A stretch of DNA of 64,000 bases from a virus (IMGVR_UViG_3300045988_058566:122600-186599); one strand, 5' to 3'. Shown: positions 56,752 through 60,878, counted from the stretch's first letter. Program-made: numbers and translations. Notes: a model not told the origin generated them from the sequence alone.

Positions 56752-56937
56752 ATGATAGCATTTTTAATATTTACAGAAGGACTTATAATTATAATATTAA
56801 TCAGCAAAATAGTCCATTCTATACGTACTAGTCGTAATCCTAAAAAGGCTTTACGATTTTTGATTTTTCAAGTTATACTGATAATTATATTATCTGTATT
56901 ATATATAATAATATTCAATTATGTGTTGGATAGGTGA
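56752..56937 (+). CDS. small membrane protein
   Basis: ATG at 56752 (MIAFLIFTEGLIIIILI...), in frame with track ORF 56707..56937. Confidence 0.45.
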   Translation: MIAFLIFTEGLIIIILISKIVHSIRTSRNPKKALRFLIFQVILIIILSVLYIIIFNYVLDR

Positions 56938-57358
56938 TGATACAGCTATTAAAAAGATAGCTGAAAGAGACTTCTATGTCTATAAGATAGGAAGAGTTAT
57001 ATGGAATAGTATTTTTATTAGCGATGTTAGAGGATATCAATATGTTCCCAAAGTTCTCAATAGAATAGTCCCTTTAATAGCTTATAGTCCTTGTATAGGT
57101 GTTTATAGGATAGACGGAGGATATCACTCTTATAAATGGATAGCTCTAGATGACACTTATCCAAACGAAAGATGTTTATGTCTAGGTAATTATACTTCAG
57201 ATTTGAGAGAATATATAGAAGCATACAAGTTTTGTTGTATAGCTACGTTTATAGTTCCCAAAGGTGCTGAATACTTTGAAAATGAGTATGGACATATAGT
57301 ATCTTCCGAAATTATTTACACAGGTAAGTATTTAAGAATAAGTAATTTTAGAAAATAA
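56921..57358 (+). CDS. MCW-family paralog 1
   Basis: MCWIG...FYVYKIG...GGYHSY...ATFIVPKGAEY...IVSSEIIYTGKYL. Confidence 0.65.
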   Translation: MCWIGDDTAIKKIAERDFYVYKIGRVIWNSIFISDVRGYQYVPKVLNRIVPLIAYSPCIGVYRIDGGYHSYKWIALDDTYPNERCLCLGNYTSDLREYIEAYKFCCIATFIVPKGAEYFENEYGHIVSSEIIYTGKYLRISNFRK

Positions 57359-57360
57359 TT

Positions 57361-57792
57361 ATGTGTTGGATAGGTAAATGCGATGTAAAAATAGCTGAGC
57401 AAGATTTTTATGTTTATAAAATAGGTCATGTATCTGATAAAGGTTTTAATAGTTTATATCAAAACTTTATTTATATACCTGGAGTATTAAATGAAGAGGT
57501 TAAAATGAGCCCTATTATACATAATTATAATATACATGAATTAATGAAGGATTATTATGGAATGATATATGAAGGGTACCATTCTTATAAAGATATAGCT
57601 ATGCCTTACTCTGATTTACACTCGTATTCTAGAACAATTTATTTAGGTAAGATTGCAGAGGATATTAGATTACATAATACTTATTCTATTGCAACATTTA
57701 TTATACCTAAAGGTTCTGAATATTACGAGAACTGGGAAGAAGAAATAGTTTCTTCTAATATAATTTATACAGGTAAACATTTAAAACTATAA
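57361..57792 (+). CDS. MCW-family paralog 2
   Basis: MCWIG...FYVYKIG...EGYHSY...ATFIIPKGSEY...IVSSNIIYTGKHLKL. Confidence 0.65.
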   Translation: MCWIGKCDVKIAEQDFYVYKIGHVSDKGFNSLYQNFIYIPGVLNEEVKMSPIIHNYNIHELMKDYYGMIYEGYHSYKDIAMPYSDLHSYSRTIYLGKIAEDIRLHNTYSIATFIIPKGSEYYENWEEEIVSSNIIYTGKHLKL

Positions 57793-57796
57793 GACT

Positions 57797-58240
57797 ATGT
57801 GTTGGGTTGAAACTAAAAATAATATAAATGTTCAAATTGCTGATAAGGATTTTAAGGTTTATAAGATAGTATTAGATGCCAATAAACAATCTTGTAAGTC
57901 TAGTGTCAAAGGCTTTAATTATACAGTAGATACTCTGTGTAATATATCTACTATAGAATCTATAGTAATTGGTCCTTATTGTGAAAAAATCAAAATAGAA
58001 AAGGCATATCACAGTTATACTGGAATACATTTTATATGTGACTCTTCTTATTATATTCATAGTGGATTAACTAAATGTAAAGACTTGTTATTTGGAAAGC
58101 GAAGAATATGTATTCCCATTGAAAATGATGGTTATATAGCAACTTTTATAATTCCTAAAGGTTCTACGTATATTATAAATACTAAAGGTGAAATTATATC
58201 CGATAAAATCATTTATACGGGTAGATATATAAAATTATAA
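57797..58240 (+). CDS. MCW-family paralog 3
   Basis: MCWVE...FKVYKI...KAYHSY...ATFIIPKGSTY...IISDKIIYTGRYIKL. Confidence 0.65.
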   Translation: MCWVETKNNINVQIADKDFKVYKIVLDANKQSCKSSVKGFNYTVDTLCNISTIESIVIGPYCEKIKIEKAYHSYTGIHFICDSSYYIHSGLTKCKDLLFGKRRICIPIENDGYIATFIIPKGSTYIINTKGEIISDKIIYTGRYIKL

Positions 58241-58244
58241 GATT

Positions 58245-58682
58245 ATGTGTTGGGTTTGTGAAATTGAAAATTTAAAAATTCAAAAAGCTGAAAAAAATAT
58301 CAGGGTATATAAAGTAGTTACGAAAGCTACTAAGAAATCTTGTACATCTCCTTTTATGAAGTACACTTATTATCTAAAGGATACACCTCCTTCTTTAACT
58401 TTAGGAGTACTGATTGAACCTCATTCAAATTTTGCAAAAATTGCAGAAGGTTATTATAGTTATCCATCTGTGAATTTTGTATGTGATTCAGTAATGCTAA
58501 GTATTGACGGAAGATTATATAAAGCTATACAGTGTGGATATCATAAAGAAGCGATCGCAGTAAACAATTCTTTATATTTAGCCACATTTATAATTCCTGC
58601 AGGTTCTACATATGCTATAAATGAGGATGGTGTAATAGTATCTAGTATGATTAGATATACAGGTAAATATTTAAAGTTATGA
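58245..58682 (+). CDS. MCW-family paralog 4 (His replaced by Tyr)
   Basis: MCWVC...IRVYKV...EGYYSY...ATFIIPAGSTY...IVSSMIRYTGKYLKL. Confidence 0.65.
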   Translation: MCWVCEIENLKIQKAEKNIRVYKVVTKATKKSCTSPFMKYTYYLKDTPPSLTLGVLIEPHSNFAKIAEGYYSYPSVNFVCDSVMLSIDGRLYKAIQCGYHKEAIAVNNSLYLATFIIPAGSTYAINEDGVIVSSMIRYTGKYLKL

Positions 58683-58891
58683 AGAAAGCATTGTTAATTA
58701 TAGGGCTATTATTAACTGTTACTTTGGTTAATAGTTATAACTATCCTACTAGAGGTGGCACTAAAGCAAAAGCTTACTATTATAAAACTCTAGAGATTAT
58801 GTATGATTCTAAGAAAAGACCTCATAAAATAGTTATATACTCAGATGAGGGTATGGCAGCTATTGATTTAGACGCAAATACATATAAGTAA
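58679..58891 (+). CDS. small secreted or membrane-anchored protein
   Basis: Signal-peptide-like N-terminus MKKALLIIGLLLTVTLVNS. Confidence 0.5.
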   Translation: MKKALLIIGLLLTVTLVNSYNYPTRGGTKAKAYYYKTLEIMYDSKKRPHKIVIYSDEGMAAIDLDANTYK

Positions 58892-59116: not shown

Positions 59117-59302
59117 ATGGCAAGAATATTTAAATGTAAGGGTATTCCTTATTATATTACAGGATGTTCTACTAAGTGGGTAGCCGCAGTTGTTGCAATT
59201 AAAAATCACTGGGGAGTTACTCCAGGCGACTTAATTGAGGTTGAATCTGTTGATGATACCGATGCTCATGTGGTAGATAAGTCTAAATTCTATCCTGAGT
59301 AA
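59117..59302 (+). CDS. hypothetical early protein
   Basis: Intact 61-aa ORF. Confidence 0.45.
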   Translation: MARIFKCKGIPYYITGCSTKWVAAVVAIKNHWGVTPGDLIEVESVDDTDAHVVDKSKFYPE

Positions 59303-59376
59303 TAAAACATTAATTGTTTAAGAGTTTGACTATTTAGTCAGCTAAGCTCTTTGTATTAATAATTTTAAATTAAATT

Positions 59377-59769
59377 ATGTGTTGGTCAAATTATATAGCA
59401 ACTCCAATTGTATTGAAGAAACCTTTAAGAGTTTATAAAGTAGGTACATTAACAACTTTAGGTGGCTTTAGAAGTTTATACCATAATTTTGTGTACCTCA
59501 AATCCAAAGTTGTGCCTACCGTAAAAATAAACCTTGAGTTTATAAAATACAATACTTTTAGTCCTTTGGATAAATCTTGGATGCACAATGCTTTTTGTAT
59601 AAATGAAGGTTATCATTCATATTTAACTAAAGAAATAGCTAAGTATAGAAGAAACATATACGAAGAAGTAGGAATATTTGAAATTCCATCGGGTGCTACT
59701 ATATATGTTAACTATAGATATGAAGAAGTAGTTAGTACTGATATTAAATATTTAGGGTTGTTAGAGTAG
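59377..59769 (+). CDS. MCW-family paralog 5 (TAG stop)
   Basis: MCWSN...LRVYKVG...EGYHSY...IFEIPSGATIY...VVSTDIKYLG. Confidence 0.6.
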   Translation: MCWSNYIATPIVLKKPLRVYKVGTLTTLGGFRSLYHNFVYLKSKVVPTVKINLEFIKYNTFSPLDKSWMHNAFCINEGYHSYLTKEIAKYRRNIYEEVGIFEIPSGATIYVNYRYEEVVSTDIKYLGLLE

Positions 59770-60045
59770 TAGAAATAACAAAATAAAAGAGAAGTTACCT
59801 ATGTAGTTGCAAATGCATAGGACAGGTGATAAGGCGAAAAGGTAACGTGATAATGATCAGGTGAACAGTCTTCTATTGTTAGCTATGTAATGTTTTAGCA
59901 AGTAAATAATAATAGATAGACTTAATACATCAAGTAGCCAAAGTACGTTCGATTCGTACTACTTCTCCAAAGTCTTTGATAGACTGAAATGCCAGGTTTC
60001 ATAGGAGTATATTAACCAATTAGTTAGTATGCTCCTTTTTATGTT

Positions 60046-60057
60046 TAACACATTAAC
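60046..60057 (+). promoter_or_regulatory. TAACACATTAAC motif
   Basis: 10 nt before ATG 60068. Confidence 0.45.
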
Positions 60058-60067
60058 AGAATTAATT

Positions 60068-60412
60068 ATGGATGAACAAGAAGCACTTAATCAAATTAAA
60101 GAATTGCAAAAGCAACGAACTTCATTAAAGAAGCAAGATACAGCTTTAGTACGTAAAATTACAGCATTGAGGGATAAACTATGGCTGTATAGTATCAAGA
60201 AAGAATACTATACTGATAATTATTGTTTATTCTGTAGAGTCTATGATATTAAAGGTGATAGTGTACTTGTATATGAGTTAGATTCTGCAGAACCATATCT
60301 CACAAAAGAAATTTATTCTCGTGCACACTTTAAAGAGACATATTGTAAAGAATGCACTAAAGAAGAGTATGACAATGCTCTAGATAAAATAGTTAATTAT
60401 TTCAAAGGTTAA
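60068..60412 (+). CDS. hypothetical coiled-coil protein
   Basis: Track ORF 60029..60412, trimmed to the ATG at 60068 (MDEQEALNQIKELQ...). This ATG lies 10 nt after TAACACATTAAC (60046-60057). Confidence 0.5.
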   Translation: MDEQEALNQIKELQKQRTSLKKQDTALVRKITALRDKLWLYSIKKEYYTDNYCLFCRVYDIKGDSVLVYELDSAEPYLTKEIYSRAHFKETYCKECTKEEYDNALDKIVNYFKG

Positions 60413-60416
60413 GCTT

Positions 60417-60878
60417 ATGTGTTTTCGGAAATCAAAGCAAAGTAAAGTATTAAGAGCTAAAAAAGATATAGTAGTTTATAAAATAGGTGACTTTGCTGAT
60501 GAGGATACTTTTACACCTTATTATATGAATAGTTTTACTTATAAAACTGGTATGCAGTGTCTAATATGTCCAGATTTTAAGAGTGACATTATAACAATAG
60601 GATTTCATGGATATATAAATATAATAGTAACTGCTACTAAGTCTCCCCAACTTCATGCAGTTATAAGAAAGAATATTAAACAGAAATCAGTAATTTCCAT
60701 ATATTCAACACTTCAAGATATACTCTATTTAGGTAAATTTATAATACCTAAAGGTGCAATTTACTGTGTTAATGAACTAAATGAGATCGTGTCTAATAAG
60801 ATTATTTACACTGGACAGTATGCTAGTGTGAGGGAAATTTCAGACGTTAATTTGAAAGAGCTATGGAAAGAAAAATAG
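60417..60878 (+). CDS. MCW-family paralog 6 (MCF variant, TAG stop)
   Basis: MCFRKS...IVVYKIG...IGFHGY...GKFIIPKGAIY...IVSNKIIYTGQY. Confidence 0.6.
   Translation: MCFRKSKQSKVLRAKKDIVVYKIGDFADEDTFTPYYMNSFTYKTGMQCLICPDFKSDIITIGFHGYINIIVTATKSPQLHAVIRKNIKQKSVISIYSTLQDILYLGKFIIPKGAIYCVNELNEIVSNKIIYTGQYASVREISDVNLKELWKEK

Follow-up and report, generated by a model that had tools for sequence, protein, structure and literature searches.

We describe six tandem paralogous genes in a 64,000-nucleotide (nt) stretch of viral DNA (IMGVR_UViG_3300045988_058566:122600-186599; hereafter the window, with positions counted from its first letter), together with the large family of phage proteins to which their products belong. 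All six lie on the + strand and open with codons for Met-Cys. Paralog 1 (56921-57358) encodes 145 amino acids (aa), matches the hidden Markov model (HMM) of the family with E 2.5e-40, and carries the motifs MCW, VYK, GGYHSY, FIVPKGAEY and IVSSEIIYTGK; its orthologs, at 75-100% identity, are found on contigs of 140-190 kb. Paralog 2 (57361-57792; 143 aa; E 3.6e-41), paralog 3 (57797-58240; 147 aa; E 6.5e-37; KAYHSY) and paralog 4 (58245-58682; 145 aa; E 4.2e-37) follow after spacers of 2, 4 and 4 nt. In paralog 4 the motif reads GYYSY, with Tyr for His, and IPKG is replaced by IPAG; this copy alone among the six ends in TGA. Paralog 5 (59377-59769; 130 aa; E 5.8e-24) is a minimal type in which a short helix replaces the long insert that separates GYHSY from FEIPSG. 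Paralog 6 (60417-60878; 153 aa; E 6.1e-34) has MCF and GFHGY, and both it and paralog 5 end in TAG.

The paralogy of these genes is far beyond chance. All six proteins can be aligned over their whole length (alignment A1), BLASTP between paralogs gives E values of 1e-4 to 1e-31, and direct DNA repeats with a period of 440-449 nt run through the array. A search of the 64 kb with an HMM of the wider family recovered exactly these six copies, at E 6e-24 to 4e-41, and none further. The original prediction of six tandem paralogs at these positions was thus confirmed by ORFs (open reading frames), BLASTP, HMM and DNA repeats alike, as was its description of four genes in a row with spacers of 2-4 nt and of products of 130-153 aa. 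The motifs that it listed, and the Tyr that it saw in place of the motif His in paralog 4, are likewise present in alignment A1. Paralogs 1-5 start with ATG-TGT-TGG and paralog 6 with ATG-TGT-TTT. In each gene an in-frame stop lies 1-8 codons 5' of the ATG, with no alternative start codon between them, so the true N-terminus is Met-Cys.

The family extends well beyond this locus. At 90% identity it comprises 1,834 clusters in a word-indexed search; an exhaustive HMMER search, with clustering at 50% identity, returned 3,117 clusters at E<=1e-3, of which 520 reached E<=1e-10. None of these clusters carries a Pfam domain or a name. When 185,579 bacterial and archaeal species, each represented by one genome, were scanned with a pattern, a single relative was found, on a 3.9 kb contig of a metagenome-assembled genome. 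IMG/VR holds 51 loci with the family, some of them from environmental jumbo phages 405 and 412 kb in size. Judged by this distribution, the family is phage-only, very large and uncharacterised. Among cultured-phage genomes, tblastn gave matches in MT835539, which is a metagenomic record, and in a cultured jumbo phage of Xanthomonas oryzae, Xoo-sp13 (MN047793, 309 kb), and in no others. Xoo-sp13 has at least 8 copies in 282883-307206, near one genome end, with HMM E values of 2e-16 to 5e-6. Most Xoo-sp13 copies are unannotated or mis-annotated; for instance, the copy at 11992-12435 of the locus is overlapped by Xoosp13_381 (12247-12438). Since the family occurs both in crAss-like phages and in Xoo-sp13, it spans phages of Bacteroidota and Proteobacteria. 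At the IMG/VR loci the genes stand in arrays, with 1-7 of them per 16 kb; several of these copies are split. The copy number differs between close relatives, which, together with the broken copies, indicates birth-and-death evolution. Orthologs of paralog 4 form the clade most abundant in the database, with 82 of 120 best matches.

Residue conservation was calculated over 389 distinct family sequences. The Cys at residue 2 (Cys2), which the original prediction had called invariant from six proteins, holds well beyond this phage: it is kept in 99% of the 369 sequences whose N-terminus could be aligned, and of the 147 full-length copies from other loci all but one (146) begin with Met-Cys exactly at HMM position 1. 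A Met-Cys start was present in 131 of 150 representatives, the remainder being mostly N-terminally truncated fragments or sequences without their first few residues. Where residue 2 differs, which is rare, it is Ser, Gly or Tyr, and no member carries an N-terminal extension ahead of Cys2. The codon is TGT in 135 copies and TGC in 18; because both Cys codons occur, selection acts on the amino acid at this position. Residue 3 is Trp in 80%, Phe in 15% and Tyr in 2%, with Leu or Thr in divergent copies. Further into the protein, the Lys of VYK and the Pro of IPxG are each conserved in 100%, Tyr42 and the Ser of IVS (S126) in 99%, and the Asn of YxN (N119) in 96%. The His of GYHSY is present in 79% and is Tyr in 20%, while the flanking Gly and Ser stand at 94-95%. 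The Xoo-sp13 copies retain MC, VYK, GxH(S/T)(F/Y), IPxG and (A/V)S. Around these residues the family tolerates C-terminal extensions and large internal inserts. Invariant reactive or polar residues combined with hypervariable, indel-rich inserts across two host phyla form a pattern typical of enzymes. The isoelectric point ranges from 4.5 to 10 in the family with no consistent basic character, and nucleic-acid binding as deduced from charge was rejected on this ground.

The genes had also been described as rapidly diversifying. Pairwise ratios of nonsynonymous to synonymous substitution (dN/dS; NG86, the Nei-Gojobori method) among orthologs had medians of 0.35-0.69 for the six paralogs, below 1 in each, and eight neighbouring unrelated genes gave 0.22-0.61. 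These values weaken that description, as they show no sign of positive selection: the family evolves fast, but purifying selection prevails overall, and in this it does not stand out from its module. The similarity to neighbouring hypothetical genes would suit a fast-evolving accessory family without special chemistry, in which conserved residues serve folding or oligomerisation, for example through an intermolecular disulfide or N-terminal packing. Many conserved positions are indeed Gly, Pro, aromatic residues or NxxG/PxG turns, and the motif His can be replaced by Tyr. A Cys retained in 99% of sequences at a fixed terminus, at less than 30% overall identity and across host phyla, would however be unusual for a structural residue in a reducing cytoplasm, and Ser is a recurrent substitute for it. 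We consider a purely structural role unlikely.

AlphaFold2 gave confident models of both proteins to which it was applied. Paralog 2, from a 127-sequence alignment, gave a mean predicted local distance difference test (pLDDT) of 93.3 and a predicted template modelling score (pTM) of 0.87, with twelve strands and no real helix. Paralog 5 (pLDDT 93.5, pTM 0.84) shares these strands and has, in addition, one short helix that follows GYHSY. In both models the N-terminus is ordered, with pLDDT 90-91 over residues 1-10, and strand 1 begins at residue 3. Foldseek searches against 350,542 PDB chains returned nothing significant for paralog 2 (best E 0.36, template modelling (TM) score <0.2) or for paralog 5 (best E 0.11, TM <=0.23). 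The models thus point with high confidence to a nearly all-beta core of about 110 aa that is decorated with hypervariable inserts and has a predicted fold without a solved relative. Against BFVD, significant matches (E 4e-6 to 5e-4, TM 0.5-0.64) were obtained to uncharacterised phage proteins, which probably belong to the family and come from other large phages. Lower-scoring BFVD matches (probability 0.84-0.98, TM 0.37-0.46) fell on C-terminal beta domains in proteins of giant viruses and phages, namely DUF4116, ankyrin, pentapeptide-repeat and DUF7666 proteins.

A small beta-rich domain with a strictly N-terminal Cys also recalls protein inhibitors. TIMPs use Cys1 against metalloproteinases, and the Inh/AprI beta-barrel inhibitors use their N-terminus against serralysins; both are small and beta-rich, and their function needs the extreme N-terminus. 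The phage family could accordingly consist of non-catalytic inhibitors or binders whose N-terminal Cys is a warhead that chelates the active-site metal of a host enzyme or plugs its active site, with the paralogs directed at different host enzymes or variants. The strictly N-terminal Cys, with no extension tolerated ahead of it, and the many diverged copies with variable surface inserts agree with these precedents. Foldseek, however, showed no similarity to TIMP or Inh folds, nor was any sequence similarity detected, and the N-terminus is predicted to be packed into the sheet as the start of strand 1 rather than to protrude. Invariant Lys, Ser, His and Asn across host phyla would also be unexpected in a pure binder. 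Inhibition is the alternative that we rank highest, while still holding it to be unlikely.

Comparison with known families placed the proteins in none that is characterised. Searches of Pfam, NCBIfam and PADLOC with the six paralogs, 127-129 representatives and 10 divergent members gave scattered single matches and no recurrent family, and a profile of the divergent members drew 14 matches in the protein database, none of them annotated. The earlier statement that no known domain could be assigned therefore stands, for non-enzymatic domains as well, across Pfam, NCBIfam, PDB sequences and the Foldseek search of the PDB. The closest catalogue entry is phrog_13450 ("unknown function"), which was matched by 100 of 127 representatives at E<=1e-3 (best E 1.8e-13) in an alignment that begins at residue 1 and covers almost the whole protein. 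For paralogs 2 and 6 the match has E 5.8e-5 and 1.1e-5; paralogs 1, 3, 4 and 5 match weakly or not at all (E 0.03 or worse). It is a catalogue entry alone, with no function, structure or literature attached; neither phrog_13450 nor DUF7666 is mentioned in the literature, and the family is not described in the jumbo-phage and crAss-like comparative literature examined. PF24703 (DUF7666) was matched by 1 of 129 members at E 0.035, below the curated threshold, and by none at E<=0.01; the structural similarity to a DUF7666 protein has probability 0.84 and TM 0.43. A remote relationship to DUF7666 is possible, and would point to a larger superfamily. In the DUF7666, DUF4116, ankyrin and pentapeptide proteins the domain lies C-terminal to repeats and so cannot have a free N-terminal Cys, and these domains, too, are without known function. 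Streptomyces phage BRock also provided one of the weaker structural matches, and HMM searches covering 100 kb of its 112.5 kb genome found no link at the level of sequence.

One further match invited an enzymatic assignment. In PDB sequence-profile searches with three profiles, the only hit was a borderline one (E 0.03) to the EGYHSYS segment of Legionella LnaB, a representative of an established S-HxxxE family (PMC13439196). As the top match, aligning IKEGYHSYSE with the region of the LnaB H..E motif, it raised the possibility that the family is a distant LnaB-type S-HxxxE phosphoryl-AMPylase/ATPase. The Glu of that motif is not conserved, however: four residues past the His, the family has Ser in 34%, Asp in 10%, Asn in 9% and Thr in 8%. 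The motif lies in a beta strand in both family models, the match is gone with the divergent-subfamily profile, and an exact 7-mer at E 0.03 is at chance level. We regard this origin as effectively refuted.

Several other catalytic folds were considered and rejected. Papain-like, NlpC-P60 and transglutaminase-like enzymes do not fit, as Cys2 precedes a beta strand and neither model has an N-terminal helix; there was no Pfam or Foldseek match to them, and the His is Tyr in 20%. For Hint/intein domains, no intein or Hedgehog structure was among the Foldseek PDB matches, and the TxxH and terminal HN motifs are absent. ADP-ribosyltransferase, cupin, sortase, YkuD and LexA-like Ser-Lys folds are unfit in residue order or fold, and none appeared in Foldseek.

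The conserved Cys, Lys, His, Ser and Tyr might instead line a pocket for a small molecule, the protein serving as a binder or sponge for an immune signalling nucleotide, an NAD-derived molecule, a metal or a cofactor. The phage sponges Tad1, Tad2 and Acb2 would be analogues. Polar residues conserved across unrelated host phyla are what a universal ligand would call for, and the proteins are small, phage-restricted and without enzyme-like relatives. Six to eight diverged copies per genome are nevertheless hard to reconcile with one ligand, and such a role leaves the Cys at residue 2 unexplained. Moreover, none of the six paralogs matched a PADLOC-DB defence or counter-defence family at E<=1, no anti-defence family was matched, and the structural neighbours in BFVD are all uncharacterised. 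We therefore think a sponge quite improbable.

The explanation that we favour, while giving it somewhat less than an even chance, is that the family is an N-terminal-Cys-dependent enzyme in a new fold, whose paralogs differ in specificity. Use of the N-terminal Cys is favoured because Cys is fixed at residue 2 across thousands of clusters and two host phyla, and because N-terminal extensions are lacking and Ser is an occasional replacement; Ser for Cys is a typical swap of nucleophiles. The few invariant reactive residues, the hypervariable inserts and the multi-copy arrays together argue for a conserved chemistry with diversified targets. Removal of Met is expected when residue 2 is small, as Cys is, owing to the specificity of methionine aminopeptidase, and a free N-terminal Cys in the mature protein is plausible. 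Host methionine aminopeptidase would thus remove Met1 and expose Cys1 at the start of strand 1. The catalytic site may then be formed by the thiol and alpha-amino group of Cys1, the Lys of VYK, the His and Ser of GYHSY, the Asn of YxN and the Ser of IVS, and would attack an amide or (thio)ester bond. The variable inserts would set the target specificity, for which reason the phage would keep 2-8 diverged copies.

Such chemistry would be that of the N-terminal-nucleophile (Ntn) hydrolases, placed in an unrelated fold. With the Cys1 Ntn hydrolases (PurF, GlmS, penicillin V acylase, bile-salt hydrolase) the family shares the Met-Cys start, the Cys that opens the first beta strand, the lack of an N-terminal extension and the occasional Ser for Cys, and a nucleophile that removal of Met would expose is encoded, as far as sequence can tell, in 99% of members. 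The likeness is one of mechanistic analogy only. Membership of the Ntn hydrolases or class II glutamine amidotransferases, to which the original prediction had likened the proteins, was rejected on fold and profiles, because the models are nearly all-beta instead of an alpha-beta-beta-alpha sandwich and because no profile matched: GATase_2-type, CBAH and Penicil_amidase families of Pfam and those of NCBIfam gave nothing even at E<=10 with the six paralogs, 129 representatives and 10 divergent members. Ntn domains also measure about 200 aa or more, compared with 110-150 aa here. Penicillin G acylase beta chains did appear in the Foldseek output, at the noise level (E 0.4-2, TM <=0.23).

A number of observations weigh against an N-terminal-Cys enzyme. 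The fold is not that of Ntn enzymes: the two models, 143 and 130 aa long, contain 10-12 strands and no more than one short helix. The proposed site is not uniformly conserved, because the His is Tyr in one clade and the Asn of YxN is lost in the Xoo-sp13 copies. The cases of Tyr for His constitute the whole paralog-4 clade, which is widespread and under purifying selection. The case for a catalytic Cys-His pair, as first proposed, is weakened by this; because an entire maintained clade manages without the His, such a dyad in particular is doubtful. A large share of the conserved residues (Gly, Pro, Tyr, Val, Ile, NxxG, PxG) could be purely structural elements of turns and core. In covariation analysis (mutual information with average product correction, MI-APC) that looked for pairing of the N-terminal strand with the GYHSY strand, the best partners of residue 3 were columns 72-73, with a z score of only ~3, which is not significant. 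Removal of Met1 is assumed from the general specificity of methionine aminopeptidase, early expression of the family is deduced solely from gene position and code usage, and no member has a known catalytic activity, ligand or target.

The genome around the array bears on when the genes would be expressed. The window is AT-rich, with a guanine-cytosine content of ~30%. Under the standard code its first 40 kb hold nearly no long ORFs; when TAG is read through, 17 long - strand ORFs of up to 2,127 codons, with up to 66 in-frame TAGs, appear in 1-40200, and the portal, large terminase (TerL) and major head protein (MCP) are among them once TAG is read as Gln. By these reading frames, the late structural module of the window is TAG-recoded. 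A tRNA with a CUA anticodon (42295-42367, - strand), labelled 'Pyl' by ARAGORN, is a putative amber suppressor. A cluster of ten tRNAs, several of them 86-91 nt long, occupies 51819-55926 on the + strand. The terminase has 26-28% identity to Crassvirales terminases. Contigs on which these proteins occur measure about 140-195 kb, and those with the protein of the window itself measure 186 and 283 kb. The Zeta group of crAss-like phages has been described as having genomes of 145-192 kb, TAG or TGA reassignment limited to late genes, and many tRNAs (PMC7886860). As the late-gene recoding of TAG and the many tRNAs match this description, the features of the window phage, a large crAss-like phage of the gut, fit the Zeta group.

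The six family genes lie in a + strand module without recoding, with the tRNA cluster on one side and, downstream of them, a PIF1-like helicase on the other. The module is presumably early or middle, by analogy, and the earlier designation of the genes as early agrees with their place in this non-recoded, tRNA- and replication-proximal part of a crAss-like phage. Candidate signals divide the array. A terminator-like hairpin (55952-55986, +) precedes the first unit, and a near-copy, with 3 mismatches, of the 16-mer ATTATTAACACATTAA (55997-56012, +) follows it, 4 nt before the gene at 56016, as a candidate promoter for the unit with paralogs 1-5. Between paralog 5 and the next unit there is a second terminator-like hairpin (60003-60036, +), with a 14 bp stem and a T-run, and another near-copy of ATTATTAACACATTAA, with 2 mismatches (60041-60056, +), heads the unit with paralog 6. 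Three exact copies of ATTATTAACACATTAA occur elsewhere in the module, at 44273, 48317 and 53820, all intergenic and on the + strand; the near copies, equally intergenic and on the + strand, lie at 55997, 60041, 43867, 47944 and 46718. Across 23 related IMG/VR loci there are 42 copies of the core TAACACATTAA on the strand of the family (+) and none on the - strand; most of them lie 200-1000 nt upstream of family arrays. The ATTATTAACACATTAA/TAACACATTAA element may therefore be a phage promoter or regulatory site. If it is a promoter, paralogs 1-5 would be transcribed as one unit, and paralog 6 as part of the unit that follows. On the N-terminal-Cys reading, the genes would be expressed from this phage-specific promoter in the presumably early module, and their products would act on host components. 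The host-takeover or anti-defence role that the original prediction suggested is a possible one; PADLOC gave no match.

The stop codons of paralogs 5 (TAG, 59767-59769) and 6 (TAG, 60876-60878) are the codon that is reassigned in late genes, and action of the suppressor tRNA would extend both proteins. Read-through of the paralog 6 TAG adds 13 aa up to the next stop; P0104 (167 aa) is such a read-through gene call. In relatives, gene callers that use the recoded table fuse adjacent copies, as in P0317 (290 aa), which reads '...KL-Q-I-MCW...' at the junction.

Other features of the window were recorded alongside. Two tRNA calls within the cluster are odd: the one at 52769-52856 has an anticodon of four bases, 'agag', and was given no amino acid, while the one at 55561-55633 is a tRNA-Tyr with anticodon ATA. 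Also among the tRNA genes, a 119-aa ORF (54423-54782, +) has a weak match to the DNA-binding Pfam family LytTR and may encode a phage transcription regulator. Just upstream of the array lies a second tandem paralog pair (56321-56539 and 56541-56750, +) of 72 and 69 aa, with 36% identity (E 1e-13) and GDYKL(I/V)K at both C-termini. Three small ORFs, none in the family, fill the interval between paralogs 4 and 5 (58679-59302, +): one of 70 aa with a signal-peptide-like N-terminus (MKKALLIIGLLLTVTLVNS), one of 72 aa that is hydrophobic and membrane-protein-like, and one of 61 aa. In the recoded region, two giant - strand ORFs (9504-15863 and 18769-25149) encode 2,120 and 2,127 aa; in the first, 'SLKNPY(S/H)L(T)' segments recur and there are stretches rich in Gly, Ser and Asn, as is typical of tail fibres.

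Taken as a whole, the original interpretation is partly supported. A wider proposal, which we put forward as possible and more doubtful than the enzyme reading itself, is that the proteins are a new structural class of N-terminal-Cys enzymes limited to large lytic phages, namely Zeta-type crAss-like, Xanthomonas jumbo and environmental jumbo phages, and that they serve as multi-copy early effectors whose inserts direct the one chemistry of Cys1 to different targets in the host. In a more radical variant of this proposal, thioester intermediates of the host, such as those of a ubiquitin-like conjugation defence, would meet a suicide trap or a decoy in the 1,2-aminothiol of Cys1.

If the N-terminal-Cys reading is true, the family would represent a new minimal catalytic scaffold, and thousands of unannotated sequence clusters would gain a testable hypothesis centred on Cys2. 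It would also mean that a major class of early effectors has so far been overlooked in phages that rank among the most abundant of the human gut, where Zeta-group phages make up 13-18% of crAss-like reads (PMC7886860). The cultured Xoo-sp13 provides an experimental entry point that the uncultured crAss-like phages do not offer. Even if the proteins prove to be non-enzymatic, a confidently predicted new fold with an obligatory N-terminal Cys makes the family a good target for structure determination.

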